From positions 44,906-108,905 of the forward strand of contig CAWHTU010000008.1 of NCBI GenBank assembly GCA_963832305.1: 64,000 bases of DNA. The letters are read 5' to 3'. Both the position numbers and the translations under genes were made by a program. Within the stretch, counting starts at the first letter, position 1, and the number at the start of each line of letters is the position of its first letter. The DNA is from an uncultured Alphaproteobacteria bacterium (GTDB lineage Bacteria; Pseudomonadota; Alphaproteobacteria; Rhizobiales; Beijerinckiaceae). Positions 3,127 through 46,742 of this stretch are shown one piece after another. The notes beneath the pieces are model-generated. The model was not told where the DNA came from. It worked only from the letters and a program-made list of their open reading frames with translations, and did not search any database.

Positions 3127-5430
3127 ATGACCGCCGTCGCCGAAGACAGCAGGGTCCGCGACGCCGGCCGCGAGGCTCCTCTCATCTTTGGCGGCTGGGA
3201 GGTCGGCCTCCTCGCCATCATGGCCATCCTCTACTCGGCCGGCCTTTATCTCAATCCCGCCTTTTTTGGCTCGACCGACGCGCTCTTTTCCGTCCTGCGC
3301 GACGCCTCTCGCTACGGCGTGCTGGCAATCGGCATGACCTTCGTCATCGTCAACAAGGAGCTGGACCTCTCGGTCGGCTCGACCTTCGGCCTCACCGCAG
3401 CGATCTTCGGGGTGATCTTCGCTCCGACCTATTTTGACATGGGGATATGGACGGCTGTCGCCTGGTGCCTCGTCATGGGGCTTACGGTCGGGCTGATCAA
3501 TGGCTTCCTGGTCACCGTCCTTGAAGTGCCGGCGTTCATCGCCACGCTGACGATGCTGTTCATCGGCCGGGGCGTGATCCTCGGCGTCACCGGAGGCAAG
3601 AACATCGCGTTCGAGATCAAGGCGGGGGAATTTCCGGCCTTCTTCCATCTCGGCGAAATCAACGCGTTCGGCTTCAACAACCAGATCATTCTCTTCGTCA
3701 TCATCGCCGCGATCGCCGCCACCGCCCTCGCGTATACGACCATCGGCTGGACGACCTATTCGGTCGGCGGCAACGAGCAGGCGGCGCGTTACGCCGGCAT
3801 CAACACCCGCTTCGTGCGGATGCGCTCCTACGTGCTTTCGTCGCTTTGCGCGGTGACCGCGGGGCTCATGAGCGTCGCCCAGAACAAGGACGCCGATCCC
3901 CTGGCCGGCTTCGGCCTGGAGCTTATCGCCATTTCGTCGGTCATCGTCGGAGGGGCGGCCATTTTCGGCGGCCGCGGGCGGATCCTCGGCTCCTGCCTCG
4001 GCGCGATTCTCATCGGGCTCATCGACAAGGTCCTGCGCGAAGGCGTGCCCACCACCCGCACGATCGATCTCGGCAACGGCGACACCGCCCAGGTGGCGGC
4101 GGTGACGCAATTGCCGCCCGGCGCGGTTCCCGCCTTCCTCGGCGTCGTCCTGATCATCGCGGTTCTCATCGAGCCCTGGCTCGTCAGGCGCCGCGCCATT
4201 CCCCGCCTCTGGGCCTGGCTCCGCGGCCGGCCGCCGCCTCCGGTTCCCGATCTCGGCGGCATTGCGATCGCCAGCGCTCCGACCCGCGGCGCAACGGTGC
4301 AGGCGCGCGGACTGGGCAAACGCGGCATCGCAGCCTTCTTCTATCGCCGGGATGCGGCTGCGGTGATCCTCATGGTCGCGCTTTGGCTGTTCGGCTGGTG
4401 GGCGCGGCCCGATTTCTGGGCCGGCCTCGACAACAGTTTTGCGACGCTGCTCGCCTTTTCGGAGATCGCGCTGCTCGCCGTCGGCCTCACCTTCGTGATG
4501 GCGAACGGCGACATCGACCTTTCGGTCGGCTCGGTGCTTGCGCTCTCCGGCGCGGTCGCGGCGGTGATCATGAAGGACACGACCTGGGGACCGCTGGCGG
4601 CGGTCGGCGGCGGACTCCTCGCCGGCGTGATCGCCGGCCTCATCAACGGCTGGCTCACCGCCTACGTCGGCTTGCCCGCCTTCATCGCCACGCTCGGGAC
4701 GTTCTACTGGGCGCGCGGCATCGGCTCGTCGATCGTCGCCGGCACCCAGCTCAACGGCTTTCCGGAGTCGTTCAACCTGATTGGACGAAACCTTTACGAG
4801 CTCCTCGACGTCATGGGCATGGCGCCCGCCGGCGGATTGTGGCTTGCGATCGCCAAGGCGGTCAGCGTGCAGACAATCTTCGTTCTCTTCGTCGCGCTCA
4901 TTGCGGGGGTCGTGCTCGCCCATACGACCTTCGGCGAGAAGGTCTACGCGATCGGCGGCAACGAACGGGCTGCGAATTTCGCCGGCATCAACACGCGGCG
5001 GGTCCGCTTCACGTCCTTCCTGATCTCATCGATCTGCGCCGCCTCTGCGGGAATCATCTACGACGCCTTCTATCGCAGCTTCATTCCGACCGCCGGGCAA
5101 TTGCGCGAGCTCGACAGCATCTCCTCGATCATCATCGGCGGCGGATCGATCTTCGGCGGCTACGGCACGATGATCGGCTCGCTTGCGGGCGCCGCCGTCA
5201 TCACGCTCATCCGTTCGCTTCTCTCGTTGCAGATCATCCTGAAGGACGGCTCATCCTTCGTCCTGCCGCAGCAATGGCAGAACGTGTTCATCGGCCTCAT
5301 TCTGATCGTCGCGGTGGTCGGCGACATCTGGCTCCGCCAGAACAATATCCTCGGCCGGTGGTTCGGCCGGAAACGAGCGCGCGAGGAAGGCCCGGCCCTG
5401 GCCGAGCCGGTCAAAAAGGCAGAAGCATGA
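3127..5430 (+). CDS. Sugar ABC permease with two fused RbsC/BPD_transp_2 domains
   Basis: DLSVGS, PAFIATL, GGNE.AA.(Y/F)AGINTR and GG..IFGG each occur twice. Start taken at ATG 3127 (MTAVAEDS). Confidence 0.85.
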   Translation: MTAVAEDSRVRDAGREAPLIFGGWEVGLLAIMAILYSAGLYLNPAFFGSTDALFSVLRDASRYGVLAIGMTFVIVNKELDLSVGSTFGLTAAIFGVIFAPTYFDMGIWTAVAWCLVMGLTVGLINGFLVTVLEVPAFIATLTMLFIGRGVILGVTGGKNIAFEIKAGEFPAFFHLGEINAFGFNNQIILFVIIAAIAATALAYTTIGWTTYSVGGNEQAARYAGINTRFVRMRSYVLSSLCAVTAGLMSVAQNKDADPLAGFGLELIAISSVIVGGAAIFGGRGRILGSCLGAILIGLIDKVLREGVPTTRTIDLGNGDTAQVAAVTQLPPGAVPAFLGVVLIIAVLIEPWLVRRRAIPRLWAWLRGRPPPPVPDLGGIAIASAPTRGATVQARGLGKRGIAAFFYRRDAAAVILMVALWLFGWWARPDFWAGLDNSFATLLAFSEIALLAVGLTFVMANGDIDLSVGSVLALSGAVAAVIMKDTTWGPLAAVGGGLLAGVIAGLINGWLTAYVGLPAFIATLGTFYWARGIGSSIVAGTQLNGFPESFNLIGRNLYELLDVMGMAPAGGLWLAIAKAVSVQTIFVLFVALIAGVVLAHTTFGEKVYAIGGNERAANFAGINTRRVRFTSFLISSICAASAGIIYDAFYRSFIPTAGQLRELDSISSIIIGGGSIFGGYGTMIGSLAGAAVITLIRSLLSLQIILKDGSSFVLPQQWQNVFIGLILIVAVVGDIWLRQNNILGRWFGRKRAREEGPALAEPVKKAEA

Positions 5431-27485: not shown

Positions 27486-28566
<1,081 letters not shown>

Positions 28567-28644: not shown

Positions 28645-28659
28645 GTACATGATTTGTTC
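28645..28659 (-). promoter_or_regulatory. Intact proximal LexA (SOS) box of recA
   Basis: Minus strand GAAC-AAATCAT-GTAC (GAAC-N7-GTAC), lying between a putative -35 TTGCGC and -10 TACATA. Confidence 0.8.
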
Positions 28660-28669
28660 TCGGGCGCAA

Positions 28670-28684
28670 GTTCTATTTTTGTCC
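28670..28684 (-). promoter_or_regulatory. Distal LexA box of recA, split by the IS insertion
   Basis: Now GTTC-N7-GTCC on the plus strand. Removing the IS and one TSD restores GTTC-TATTTTT-GTTC. Confidence 0.75.
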
Positions 28685-28732
28685 GCATTATGCACCTCGC
28701 AAACCGGACAGAATATGATGGTGTACGGTAAG

Positions 28733-29503
28733 TTAGAATGGTTCTCCGACGAGAATTCGCTTGGTGTCGGACTCTATGCCGGTAAGGAAGGATTCGACTA
28801 CTACAGAGAGATAATCGATCGCCTCAATGACCGGTTTCCCCCGGAGTCCATCAATGTCGCCGAACGATATATGAAAGGCGACATTGAGATCGTAGCGAGG
28901 CTCAACATTATCGACTGTGTTACTGATTACGATCTCGTTTTTTACCGGGTCCCAATATGGTCTAAGGATCGGCCCGTGTCCGGGGAGTTCGAGGGTATTA
29001 ACGTCGATGTTATCGACGGACGCGCCAAAGCCAACAAGCGATCGATGCTTGTTACTGTTGGTGAGGTTTTTAATGGCCCAGAGCCTCTCATTCCCTCCCT
29101 TGTACGGCTGGAAAAATCCCATAACACCGAGAACCCGAGGGTGGACTTTCGTGGCCAGCCGGGAGATGGATTTTTCAAAATGAGACCGGGAGTCTCCAAA
29201 GACGAAATACACTTGGTCCAAGCTAGTGTCGGGAGTAAGGGCCGACACCGTGGCACACACCCCTTGATCCAAAGCGCCCCTCAAATTGTTGAGGGCATCG
29301 GCGGCGATAGGCCAAAGATTGGGGGGCAATTCGGCGGACAGCCTAACCTTTCTGGAATAGCGGCCGGTGTTCGGGTCGCGGTCTGTGAACTGGGTGTATG
29401 TATGGTTGTCGAAAAAGTCCTTTGCTCGTGTATTAAGTTCCTCTCGGTTTTCCCGAGCGCGATTCAGAAGCAGAAACGGACTGTCGAAGGGATCGAGATG
29501 CAT
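28733..29503 (-). CDS. IS passenger hypothetical protein (256 aa), possible HEPN-like fold
   Basis: Long open frame at about 52% GC (one 60-nt line counted). Motifs [11 protein letters not shown] and YKGGNERLW...TNSNKHR. Start uncertain (ORF extends to 29584). Confidence 0.65.
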
Positions 29504-29699
29504 GGTCGCCAAGGAGAGCGAGGAATTGAGCGAAGAGGAAATCAAACGCCGCATGAGCGCGGCTGTTCGCCGCGCCCTTGCCACGCCTCATTCCCCAACT
29601 AGCGAGCTGGTTGGAAAAACGGAGCGTGCCAAGGTGCAGCGTGAGAGTCGAGAACTTAAAGGGCGTCGAGCAACGCCAAAAGGCGACGAAGATTCTTAA
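29502..29699 (+). CDS. Small charged helical protein inside the IS (65 aa)
   Basis: [30 protein letters not shown]... with RBS-like GAAGGGA. Its stop overlaps the transposase stop in TTAA. Confidence 0.45.
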   Translation: MVAKESEELSEEEIKRRMSAAVRRALATPHSPTSELVGKTERAKVQRESRELKGRRATPKGDEDS

Positions 29700-30655
29700 G
29701 CGCTCGGTTGTTGCGTTCTCGGGTTACGAGGACTGCGGTATATAAGGCGCTTACCGCGGGCTCCCTTGGCCGCGAGTATCGCCCGCTCCGTGTCCTCGAC
29801 GCCAAGTTTTGAGCGGTTTGAAAAGCGGAAATCGAACTCAGAAAGGTAGCGGTGCAAGTGCTGCTCGCCACAGTGCTGGTAGACGCCGACCATGCCGCGT
29901 TTGAAGATTGAGAAATAGCCTTCAACCGTGTTCGTGGTCGTTTCGCCGCGCGCATATTCGCCCGAGCCGTGGTTGACTGCTTCGTGGGCCGCAAACGCGT
30001 TGCCGGGCTGCTTGTAGAACTGCGCCTCGTCCGTGTTGAGTGTCGAATCTAGTACGACGTGCGCGCCCAGAACCTTCTTGATCGTCGGGATCGTCAAGTC
30101 CTCGACCTTGACGGAGACGGCGCGACCACCGCGCTCAACCATCGTGAGAACCTTGCGCTTGGTCCCGGTACCGCGTTGGCCCTGCCAGCCCTTGCCAGAC
30201 ACAAACACGTCTTCGGGCTTGCCGATATAGGTCTCGTCAACCTCGACCGTCTTGCCCTTACCGCCTAGCGGCTCGGGGTCGCGATCCGCCATCGCCTCGC
30301 GAACGCGGTGCGCCAAAAACCAAGCGGTGCGATAGGAGCCGAGCCCGAGTTCACGCATGAGCTGGTGAGCGGATACGCCTTTCTTTGACCCAGCCATAAG
30401 GCGGAAGGCAAGCGCCCACTTGTGCAATGGGACGTGCGAGGACTCCATGACGGTTCCGACCGTCACTGAGAACTGCCCATCGCACGCACGGCACTTGTAG
30501 ACGCCTGCGCGATGAGCTTCGCCCTTTAGGGCTGTCGCCTCGTTCACAACGCCGCAATGCGGGCAGACTGGACCGTTCGGCCAATGCAGCGCTTCGAAAT
30601 AGGCGCGGGCCGCGTCCTCATTATGGAAAATCTGGTCAGTGAGATTGATAGACAT
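29696..30655 (-). CDS. IS1595-family (ISXO2-like) DDE transposase with N-terminal zinc ribbon
   Basis: WPNGPVCPHCG...YKCRACD, VEVDETYIG, LNTDE, VNH, TTNTVEGYFS, YLSEFDFRFS. Confidence 0.95.
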   Translation of the reverse strand: MSINLTDQIFHNEDAARAYFEALHWPNGPVCPHCGVVNEATALKGEAHRAGVYKCRACDGQFSVTVGTVMESSHVPLHKWALAFRLMAGSKKGVSAHQLMRELGLGSYRTAWFLAHRVREAMADRDPEPLGGKGKTVEVDETYIGKPEDVFVSGKGWQGQRGTGTKRKVLTMVERGGRAVSVKVEDLTIPTIKKVLGAHVVLDSTLNTDEAQFYKQPGNAFAAHEAVNHGSGEYARGETTTNTVEGYFSIFKRGMVGVYQHCGEQHLHRYLSEFDFRFSNRSKLGVEDTERAILAAKGARGKRLIYRSPRNPRTQQPSA

Positions 30656-30672
30656 GGGCGGTTCCGTGAAGA

Positions 30673-30897
30673 TTACTTTGGATTGTGTCCCGGAGACGGA
30701 GGATGAATTCCAGTTTGTTGTGAGGGGGATGCGTCATTTATTTTTCTGCCCAGTCTCCGAAACTCAGACAGGGGAATCTCAACAATCCATTCCTCAGTTT
30801 CATTCTCGATCTTTACGTATCCACAATCTGGCCTTTCGCCGTTCAAATAGCCGGTCGCAGACTGACCATATACAAAATGTTGCTTTCGAATCTTCAC
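30673..30897 (-). CDS. IS passenger hypothetical protein (74 aa) upstream of the transposase
   Basis: GTG start with RBS GGAGG. An inward promoter-like TTGACA-N18-TAGTGT begins in the right TIR. Confidence 0.55.
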   Translation of the reverse strand: MKIRKQHFVYGQSATGYLNGERPDCGYVKIENETEEWIVEIPLSEFRRLGRKINDASPSQQTGIHPPSPGHNPK

Positions 30898-31165
30898 TGG
30901 ACGCCTCCAAGGGTAGGAACACTACCCGAACGTCTGGCGGTTTGTCAAGTGCATAATGCCCATTTTTGTTCCACGACTTGATTTGTCGGCATCAAAGTTA
31001 AGGGCTTCAATTTCTCGCATTTACGGACTCGCCGGAGCGCCTCCGAGTCTGGGTCGCCATGGGCGCGCCGACGTGACGCTTCGTGATTCCTCGCCGATCG
31101 TCTCCGGCTCCGCGCTTTCCGCTCCGCTTCATGCTAGATGAGCGCGTTCTGAAAGTGGACCCGTC

Positions 31166-31588
31166 ATGATTTGGGGAACGTTCGCGCTTATCTTCGCTAC
31201 CGCCTTCACCGGCGCCTCGTTCTACGTCAACTGGGTCGAGCAGCCTGCGCGGCTCAAGCTCGAGGATGACGCGCTGCTCAGCGAATGGGGGCCAAGCGAC
31301 AGCCGGGGGATCGCGCTTCTCGCGGCTTATGCGCTCCTGGCGGCGATCGCCGGCTTCTTCGCCTATTTCGAATCGCAGGACGTGCGGTGGGCGTTCGGCG
31401 CGCTGGTCATCATCCTGAGCTGGCCCTACGCGTTTTTTCTCATGACGCCGCTTGACAACCAGATCCGGGGGCTGCGCGGCTCCGACGTCGCCGCGGCGCG
31501 GGCTCTCGTTCGCCAATGGGGCCTCGTCGAATCCGGCCTTACGGGACTCGGGCTGGCGGCGGTTGCCCTGTTCGCATGGGTGATTTGA
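31166..31588 (+). CDS. DUF1772-like (anthrone oxygenase family) membrane protein
   Basis: Four hydrophobic segments, GASFYVNWVEQPAR, W-P-S, C-terminal W...R..LG pattern. Confidence 0.65.
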   Translation: MIWGTFALIFATAFTGASFYVNWVEQPARLKLEDDALLSEWGPSDSRGIALLAAYALLAAIAGFFAYFESQDVRWAFGALVIILSWPYAFFLMTPLDNQIRGLRGSDVAAARALVRQWGLVESGLTGLGLAAVALFAWVI

Positions 31589-45875: not shown

Positions 45876-46742
45876 TCATCCTCCCTTCGGGTAGTCCGCG
45901 CCGCGCGCGACCGCCTCTCCCGCCACATATTCCTTGCGCAAGGCGTCGAGCTCTGCGCCCATCGCCTCATAGGCGAAGCTGCCGAGCACGAGCCGCAACG
46001 GCGGCTTCTCCTGTTCGACGGCGGCGATGATCGCTTCGGAGCCGCGGACGGGATCGCCCTGCTGCTTGCCGCTGATCGACTGGGTGAAGTTGCGGCGCGC
46101 AATCGCCGTGTCGGCGTAGGCGTCGATTGGGTGTTTCGGAACTTTGAGCGAACGCCCGGCCCAGTCGGTGCGGAACGGGCCGGGCTCGACGATAATGACT
46201 TTGATCCCGAGCGGTCCGACCTCCTTGGAAAGCGATTCAGACATGCCTTCGACAGCAAATTTGGTCGCCGCGTAGTAGCCCGATCCGGGAAAACCAATGA
46301 AACCGCCCATCGACGATACGTTGACGATGGCGCCCGACTTTTGCGCGCGCATGATCGGCAGCACAGCGCGAGTCAAAGCTGCGAGGCCAAACACATTGGT
46401 CTCGAACATCGCCCGAATATCGGCGTCGTCGCCCTCCTCGATCGCGGCGAGATAGCCGTAGCCGGCGTTGTTGACGAGGACGTCGATGCGTCCGAAGCGC
46501 CGTTGGGCGGCCCCGACGGCCGCTTCGATCTCTGCCTGCTTCTCGACGTCGAGTTTGAGAGCCAGCGCCTTCTCAGCGTGGTCGCGGACGAGATCCTCGA
46601 CCTTCGCTTTGTCGCGCGCCGTCACCACGACGCGATAGCCGCGCGACAGCAGGATTCTCGACAATTCCCGTCCGAATCCGGTCGAGCAGCCGGTGATCAG
46701 CCAGACCGGTTTTTGGTGAGCGGAAGATTGATCGGCGGCCAT
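45876..46742 (-). CDS. Short-chain dehydrogenase/reductase
   Basis: ITGCSTGFG, VNNAGYG, NVSS, YAATK, EPGPFRT. Confidence 0.92.
   Translation of the reverse strand: MAADQSSAHQKPVWLITGCSTGFGRELSRILLSRGYRVVVTARDKAKVEDLVRDHAEKALALKLDVEKQAEIEAAVGAAQRRFGRIDVLVNNAGYGYLAAIEEGDDADIRAMFETNVFGLAALTRAVLPIMRAQKSGAIVNVSSMGGFIGFPGSGYYAATKFAVEGMSESLSKEVGPLGIKVIIVEPGPFRTDWAGRSLKVPKHPIDAYADTAIARRNFTQSISGKQQGDPVRGSEAIIAAVEQEKPPLRLVLGSFAYEAMGAELDALRKEYVAGEAVARGADYPKGG

Follow-up and report, generated by a model that had tools for sequence, protein, structure and literature searches.

The stretch of DNA analysed here, called the window, comprises 64,000 nucleotides from an uncultured bacterium of the Beijerinckiaceae (assembly GCA_963832305.1, contig CAWHTU010000008.1, positions 44,906 to 108,905 of the forward strand), and contains an insertion sequence (IS) with cargo that lies in the promoter of recA, inside a LexA-type box that its relatives also occupy in other species. 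The recA gene is located on the minus strand directly downstream of the IS, with its start codon at 28566, and is followed by alaS. The IS, an ISNwi1-like member of the IS1595 family, spans 28683–30961 on the minus strand (2279 bp), exhibits a GC content of 55.5% against a background of 65%, and is flanked on both sides by a perfect 8-bp duplication, ATTTTTGT. The left copy of this duplication (28675–28682) corresponds to box positions 3–10 on the recA strand, and the right copy (30962–30969) was likewise read from the sequence. On the plus strand, the left junction (28682/28683) reads GCGCAA GTTC TATTTTTGT / CCGCATTATGCACC, and the right junction (30961/30962) reads GGTGCATAATGCC / CATTTTTGT TCC. 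An end-repeat and pattern search placed one inverted end on the recA side, distal to the transposase gene (28683–28706), and the other adjoining the transposase gene tnp (30938–30961), where it holds the −35 hexamer TTGACA (30948 to 30943, minus strand). The inverted repeats within these ends (28685–28706 and 30938–30959) are 22 nt long and 86% complementary, and the end pattern occurs at just these two places in the window, with 0.00 occurrences expected.

The transposase gene (29696–30655, read on the minus strand from 30655) encodes 319 residues. Profile searches of the protein returned Pfam DDE_Tnp_IS1595 (PF12762, 2.3e-32), Zn_ribbon_IS1595 (PF12760, 3.6e-13) at residues 12–59 of the N-terminus, and NCBIfam transpos_IS1595 (NF033547, 8.3e-58). 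Domains, inverted ends and 8-bp duplication together place the element in the IS1595 family, and the coordinates, domains and ends all hold for the IS1595 element with an 8-bp duplication that an earlier sequence-only reading of this DNA had placed at 28683–30961. With GGGCATTAT.. and ..ATAATGCGG as its ends and with a cargo gene, the element may fit the signature of the ISNwi1 subgroup, i.e., ends of the form ggnnatTAT and frequent passenger genes. An exact-protein look-up found no record of this transposase sequence, and the plasmids of PLSDB contain distant IS1595 fragments only, none covering at least 80% of the element.

Removal of the IS and one copy of the duplication in silico yields GTTC-TATTTTT-GTTC adjoining gcgcaa, which on the recA strand is GAAC-AAAAATA-GAAC abutting TTGCGC, with GAAC-AAATCAT-GTAC following four bases further on. 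The published SOS box of alphaproteobacteria is GTTCN7GTTC/GAACN7GAAC (PMC9578287, PMC3091678). The rebuilt distal site fits this direct-repeat LexA consensus, and the second, proximal box is of the form GAAC-N7-GTAC. This proximal LexA-type box, read directly at 28645–28659 (minus strand), is located between the recA −35 and the −10 region and recurs, as GAACAAAnnnnG[TC]AC, upstream of recA in more than 20 species. The hexamer TTGCGC (28664–28669, minus strand) is assigned as the putative recA −35; in the rebuilt empty sites, the distal box is immediately followed by TTGCGC or TTGGCA, and both boxes flank or overlap this hexamer in more than 20 species. The interrupted distal box persists as two remnants, both read directly. 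On the recA side, GGAC-AAAAATA-GAAC (28670–28684, minus strand) is one base off GAAC-N7-GAAC, its GG being contributed by the IS tip and its AC and spacer by the duplication, whereas the remnant away from recA (30957–30971, minus strand) reads TGCC-CATTTTT-GTTC on the plus strand. Direct reading of the sequence thus bore out three further statements of the sequence-only reading, namely that excision restores a perfect GTTC-TATTTTT-GTTC just upstream of the putative −35, that the second box and the core promoter remain with recA, and that the junctions read GTTC-N7-GTCC (28670–28684, plus strand) and TGCC-N7-GTTC.

The SOS-box motif is matched two to three times in the window, with about two matches expected by chance. 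Since the count alone is no rarer than chance, the significance of the boxes rests on their position and their conservation across species. A third GAAC-N7-GAAC (46139–46153) falls within overlapping open reading frames (ORFs) of both strands, distant from any evident intergenic promoter region, and most probably matches by chance. A promoter consensus scan called neither the IS promoter nor the recA promoter, the −10 rule of the scan being too strict for their hexamers.

A transposase scan of one genome per GTDB species gave 80 loci, in which the IS ends and flanks were located by script and recA was located by tblastn. Among the 31 closest relatives (transposase identity 58–82%, different species), 28 have at least one junction in the recA-promoter site. 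The shared target reads GA-ACAAAAAA-AGAAC-TTG(C/G)(G/C)(C/A)-N4-5-GAACAAAnnnnG(T/C)AC, where the first two hyphens enclose the duplicated 8-mer. The hosts of these 28 copies are metagenome-assembled genomes (MAGs) of Beijerinckiaceae, Methylocystis, Methylovirgula, Roseiarcus, Rhodoblastus, Methylocella and Methylobacteriaceae, plus two isolates, and recA itself falls within the retrieved flank at 22 of the 28 loci. Both junctions were correctly parsed in 22 copies, 20 of which have perfect 8-bp duplications and 19 of which rebuild a canonical GAAC-N7-G[AT]AC; the duplication corresponds to box positions 3–10 in every copy with both junctions readable. Five extra homologs, picked solely for their long contigs, all show the order tnp-cargo-recA-alaS and the same junctions, one of them being the isolate Methylocystis sp. 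Sn-Cys. A metagenome end-pattern scan added at least four further recA-site cases, the other matches listed being mostly other IS subgroups and chance matches. The sequence-only reading had proposed that the AT-rich spacer of SOS boxes may be a preferred target. The part of this proposal that stands is a preference, much stronger than proposed, for one recA-promoter site (28/31 and 5/5), but no copy was seen in any other SOS box among the relatives examined.

IS1595-family elements make 8-bp duplications in A/T-rich DNA and are usually treated as ordinary, weakly A/T-targeted ISs. An ordinary IS could thus have entered an A/T-rich spot by chance, with the overlap with the box being coincidental, which would also agree with the chance-level frequency of the motif in the window. 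However, the window offers 253 8-mers with at least seven A/T in 62 kb, with ACAAAAAW occurring solely at the recA box, so that an A/T preference alone cannot explain the pattern. Moreover, more than 35 independent copies occupy identical base pairs in different species, and the related loci are not assembly copies of one sequence, as their transposase identities and different flanks show. The probability left for a chance insertion is negligible.

The copies at the recA site are repeated independent insertions. The duplicated 8-mer follows the spacer of each host (ACAAAAAA, ACAGAAAA, ACAAATAA, ACGGAAAA and ACAAAAAT; ACAAACAG and ACAAAATC in inverted copies), being identical on both sides within each genome and different between species, a pattern that one ancient insertion could not have created. 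Copies in either orientation occupy the same base pairs (L008, L024, L032), with about 22 copies directed toward recA and 6 inverted in the GTDB set, and the neighbouring genes on the distal side vary from locus to locus. One ancient insertion, inherited vertically in Beijerinckiaceae and Methylocystaceae and now a fossil element, would account for a location common to a family-level clade, and the identities of transposase and RecA do correlate weakly (r = 0.44). However, two Methylocystis loci (L011 and L029) encode RecA proteins that are 97% identical and transposases that are only 66% identical, and the L029 transposase groups with those of L027 and L030, whose RecA proteins are 90–92% identical. 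The transposases are intact and nearly all parsed duplications are still perfect, as opposed to those of a fossil. Together with the variation within one species described below, this makes vertical descent from a single event highly improbable. At another locus (L013:4188–4225), the duplication of the complete IS at the recA site is immediately preceded by a remnant of about 35 bp composed of two IS tips, an arrangement that indicates two successive insertions into the same 8 bp.

Alleles of the same species were found through the neighbouring 140-residue protein (31166–31588), the identical sequence of which is present on seven metagenome contigs; on the recA side, the same-species contigs share 99.5% identity with the window. 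Four of them (L002–L005) carry the uninterrupted site GTTCTATTTTTGTTC, as the excision in silico had predicted, followed by a different, 375-bp insert resembling a miniature inverted-repeat transposable element (MITE). In the fifth (L001), a long-read-style assembly with homopolymer indels, nothing is inserted between recA and the 140-residue gene, and the sequence reads GTCC where the others read GTTCC. Since the site is empty or differently filled within the species, the IS allele is polymorphic and therefore a recent gain.

The MITE-like element (L002:5421–5795, also in L003–L006) lies 4–5 bp distal to the same recA box. Its ends form a 43-bp imperfect inverted repeat starting GGGATATAGCGATCG, and the L002 copy lies between 14-bp direct repeats, TTTTTGTTCCGGCA, which take in part of the box. 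Similar ends are found in three other species (L016:~3883–3923, L017:~3907, L028:~3874–3914), and the site upstream of recA is thus a dock for at least two element families. In addition, the 10–12 bp just distal to the box differ among three alleles that are otherwise about 99% identical (GTTCCACGACTTG, GTCCGCAACCTTG and GTTCCGGCAACCGG, compared at window 30970–30980, L001:5803–5815 and L002:5806–5818), forming a small hypervariable patch beside the insertion point, part of which may be due to long-read error in L001.

A further candidate LexA-type operator, GTTC-GGGTAGT-GTTC (30917–30931, minus strand), lies inside the element and overlaps the putative −10 (TAGTGT) of the tnp promoter. On the tnp strand, the left end of the IS reads GGGCATTATGCAC-TTGACA-N12-GTTC-GGG-TAGTGT-TC, after which come GGAG and a start codon. 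The GTTC-N7-GTTC therein begins 11–12 bp after the −35 TTGACA, which itself lies within the inverted end, and covers TAnnGT. The motif is exact and in the same position in most of the approximately 26 readable 5′ ends of the clade (17/22, plus L221–L227) and differs by a single base in another three. Alignment of 21 ends shows little or no variation in the inverted-repeat core, both half-sites, the ribosome-binding site and the ATG, while the stretch from the −35 to the first half-site varies freely and the spacer and flanks of the motif also vary; the position of the motif is fixed relative to both the −35 and the start codon. Such a pattern of conservation would be expected if a LexA operator covered a −10. 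The sister sub-lineage (L025, L027–L030) and a clade at 50% identity lack the motif. Where it is conserved, its position suggests that the transposase is probably repressed by LexA and released in the SOS response.

For recA, the insertion amounts to a single A-to-G change in the recA-side operator (GAAC to GGAC), with the A-tract, the −35 and the proximal box untouched. A weakened repression of recA by LexA, as proposed in the sequence-only reading, is possible but may be overstated, and the effect may be small. The transposase and cargo genes of the window copy point toward recA, in agreement with the sequence-only reading, which had IS transcripts running in that direction. A scan of the element detected no terminator-like site from the cargo gene to the end of the IS. 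Transcription could therefore conceivably run on into recA, a feature that the inverted copies of other species show to be dispensable.

The recA gene of the window (27486–28566, minus strand) is interrupted by an additional T at 28101/28102 (GAGTTCGAT versus GAGTCGAT in relatives), which shifts the frame by +1. The resulting ORFs of 163 and 203 residues cover positions 1–137, and 140–262 plus RecA_C, of the Pfam RecA profile, while recA is intact (359 residues) in L001–L005. The extra T is the sole indel in 5.4 kb relative to L002 and the sole coding indel in about 12 kb relative to the same-species contigs. In related metagenome contigs, all of the depth in one run and about 83% in two others lacks the extra T. 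The frameshift is either a real pseudogene in the IS-bearing strain or a single assembly error. Conceivably, the main effect of the insertion is a de-repression of recA that was then compensated by this frameshift, as the altered distal operator, the missing terminator-like site and the singularity of the indel might indicate. However, recA is intact in almost all other carriers, the proximal box and core promoter are preserved, inverted copies exist, and the frameshift may be an artefact, all of which make this sequence of events unlikely. The recA gene also looks broken in L013 and L033. The sequence-only reading had overlooked this frameshift, the internal operator and the occurrence of relatives in both orientations.

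The explanation that best accounts for these observations jointly, and that is very probably correct, is an ISNwi1-like clade with cargo that homes to the recA operator and whose transposase gene is under a LexA-type operator. The recA promoter would be its specific insertion site in Beijerinckiaceae, Methylocystis and neighbouring alphaproteobacteria, where a staggered 8-bp cut would cover positions 3–10 of the distal LexA operator that abuts the recA −35, and the window copy would represent one recent, independent event of this kind. In most of the clade, the window copy included, the operator over the tnp −10 would keep tnp repressed until its release in the SOS response. By sparing the core promoter, the proximal operator and a one-mismatch distal operator, the insertion would make the recA promoter a low-cost docking site for variable cargo. 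Of this explanation, the structure of the element, its recurrence at recA, the independence of the insertions and the conservation of the internal motif are observed, while binding by LexA, induction in the SOS response, an origin of the specificity in the transposase rather than in selection, and any change in recA expression are inferred.

Several points weigh against this explanation or limit it. Three of the 31 relatives (L009, L018, L052) sit elsewhere, none of them in a GAAC-N7-GAAC site, so the specificity is not absolute. Most loci are MAGs, in which multi-copy ISs assemble poorly, and extra copies at other sites could therefore be under-sampled. No indexed sequencing run contains the strain of the window, the best run sharing 0.21 of the sampled words, mostly from conserved recA; Logan contigs at 98% identity gave IS-internal pieces and one flank, and none of them spans the junctions or the frameshift. 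The sub-lineage lacking the internal operator (L025, L027–L030) uses the same recA site, which shows that homing is independent of that operator and that the two SOS links are separable. Furthermore, the distal box is degenerate in L024 (GAAC-N7-GCTT) and in the upland soil cluster alpha (USC-alpha) and Methylocella hosts L027 and L030, all of which are still hit in the A-tract, 5–6 bp upstream of the recA −35; the recognised feature may thus be the A-tract with its promoter context rather than the LexA box.

The same loci bear on the idea that a LexA–operator complex guides the element to its target, rather than the DNA sequence alone. Such protein-guided homing would fit a target and an IS promoter that are both LexA-type operators and the large share of canonical rebuilt targets (19/22). 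However, homing persists in the sub-lineage without its own operator and at degenerate distal boxes, and no other SOS box was seen to be hit. In L013, the second copy entered a hybrid GGAC site adjoining the remnant of the earlier copy, showing that the distal half-site is dispensable and that the determinants lie in the duplicated 8-mer and on the promoter-proximal side. Guidance by LexA is therefore improbable. Read outward from the junction, the target has G.ACTTG.CA at positions 10–19, and the IS ends carry GCACTTGACA in the same register. This resemblance amounts to 10–12 of 18 positions in Methylocystis-type promoters and 5–8 in others, against a background mean of 4.3, and such mimicry of the IS end is a lead, not a result.

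A further possibility is that targeting is loose, toward A-tracts, and that selection retains copies upstream of recA that are harmless or give cargo or recA a useful expression, those elsewhere being lost. The copies elsewhere (L009, L018, L052, and the remnants L207–L214) could be read in this way, selection could also underlie the excess of copies directed toward recA (about 22:6), and the MITE-like element at almost the same spot shows that the region tolerates insertions. However, neutrality would allow any nearby position in the intergenic region of about 300 bp, as opposed to the base-pair precision seen in both orientations, and other transposase clades show fixed flanks of their own, which points to an intrinsic property. 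Retention by selection is thus rather unlikely, and the specificity would arise from the transposase.

One such clade, a sister group at about 51% transposase identity (L047–L086), occurs in Mesorhizobium, Chelativorans, Aquibium and Hoeflea, with ends CCTAATTATATAC and empty sites of the form AGG-N8-CC. Its members often lie directly before TTGACrCCGTGACGGTGGTyTGGTAGG, and several copies are arranged in tandem as IS end, 8 bp, IS end. The copy at L064:6598–8228 is followed by a terminase large subunit gene (Terminase_6N, 1.7e-20), which looks like the head of a packaging cluster of a prophage or resembling a gene transfer agent (GTA). Other ISNwi1-like subgroups, with ends GGAATTATGCACTTGACATACC, have recurring flanks of their own (GTCCTAATTT.. 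and CCCTCCCCACAAGG..) at the metagenome loci L092, L106, L108, L110, L130, L146 and L187. Fixed targets may therefore be common among ISNwi1-like subgroups. A wider proposal, put forward only tentatively and in all its parts jointly, is that ISNwi1-like transposases are promoter-homing, each clade being devoted to one promoter or operator a fixed few bp upstream of a −35. The sister Mesorhizobium-type clade would read the TTGAC promoter before the terminase/GTA-like cluster, and the recA clade would be LexA-timed, i.e., a single-protein, SOS-gated safe-harbour system in which jumping coincides with LexA leaving the target and which docks defence-like cargo.

In the literature consulted, no IS is reported to target a LexA operator or the recA promoter, and neither target specificity nor a LexA operator is described for ISNwi1-type elements. 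The clade shares with the ISNwi1 subgroup a single DDE transposase with a zinc ribbon, 8-bp duplications, a size of 1.9–3.9 kb with passenger genes, and presumably the short ends GGnnATTAT, while homing to the recA operator and the LexA operator are features of the present clade. Like Tn7 at attTn7 (TnsD) and other safe-harbour transposons, the element uses a single conserved site beside a near-universal housekeeping gene, at about one copy per genome, with variable cargo and little harm to the neighbouring gene. In contrast to Tn7, which employs TnsD and TnsABC and inserts downstream of glmS, it encodes one transposase only and enters an operator within the promoter upstream of recA; no TnsA/B/C or TnsD/TniQ genes are present in the element, and the resemblance is functional only. 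Integron integrases, the Tn5 transposase and GIL01-type LexA-controlled phages likewise have a LexA operator over a recombinase or lytic promoter, which ties mobility to DNA damage. In those systems, however, the LexA operator is not known to serve as the integration site. LexA control of the present element is inferred from a conserved motif alone. Sequence-defined targets at a fixed position are also known for IS1397 and ISKpn1 (repetitive extragenic palindromes and bacterial interspersed mosaic elements, REP/BIME), IS4321 and IS5075 (Tn21-type ends) and IS30 (end-like hot spots), and in IS30, too, the target flank resembles the IS end in the same register. Unlike these ISs, the present clade has a unique promoter/operator as its target and a transposase of a different family, and its mimicry is weak in many hosts (5–12/18).

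If this explanation holds, a clade of ISs homes to one operator of a near-universal gene and is seemingly switched on by the same repressor, which would be a new way of coupling the SOS regulon to the activity of mobile elements and to the delivery of cargo such as the restriction-like GmrSD. It would also provide a simple, one-protein case of site-specific transposition that can be dissected in cultured methanotrophs, and suggests a possible safe-harbour integration tool for alphaproteobacteria. As a recurrent insertion dock, the region upstream of recA in these taxa would matter for recA-based typing, promoter studies and MAG curation.

Within the element, the IS promoter is followed first by a small ORF, orf74 (30673–30897, minus strand), which has no homolog at the other loci, and then by the transposase gene. 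A small ORF of 64 residues, or a remnant, is convergent with tnp (29505–29699, plus strand); tblastn shows conservation of its 45 C-terminal residues in about 20 related ISs, and full versions of 93–98 residues exist in L011 and L014. The cargo gene orf283 (28733–29503, minus strand) probably encodes 256 residues, its sense frame being open in homologs. A 295-residue antisense frame (28716–29602, plus strand), which starts right after the promoter-like IS end, was rejected as a shadow ORF, because homologs have stops there. The cargo family is rare, with 22 homologs among 5.8 billion proteins, all of them devoid of Pfam domains, and is also found in contexts bearing integrases and resolvases. 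The window cargo protein has no match in Pfam, PADLOC or NCBIfam, and its AlphaFold model (predicted local distance difference test score, pLDDT, 80) matched no PDB fold at E<0.3.

In relatives, whose ISs are 1.9–3.9 kb long, the cargo includes a type IV restriction-like protein (GmrSD_N and HNH, L224:5158–6711), a protein with a weak MtlR-like match (L223:5162–5608), one with a faint Trypsin_2-like match (L226:5127–6155) and a nested IS (L227), the others being without assignment. The dock before recA may thus collect defence-type genes. Finally, a motif, CATTTTGTCC (reverse complement GGACAAAATG), is conserved about 24–33 bp inside the recA-side tip, e.g., in L026, L011 and L070, where it provides a small ORF directed inward (M..KKGQAG..) with its ribosome-binding site and start. 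It pairs as an inverted repeat with the IS tip and the duplication (GGACAAAAA), and the window copy of the motif is degenerate (TTCTGTCC).

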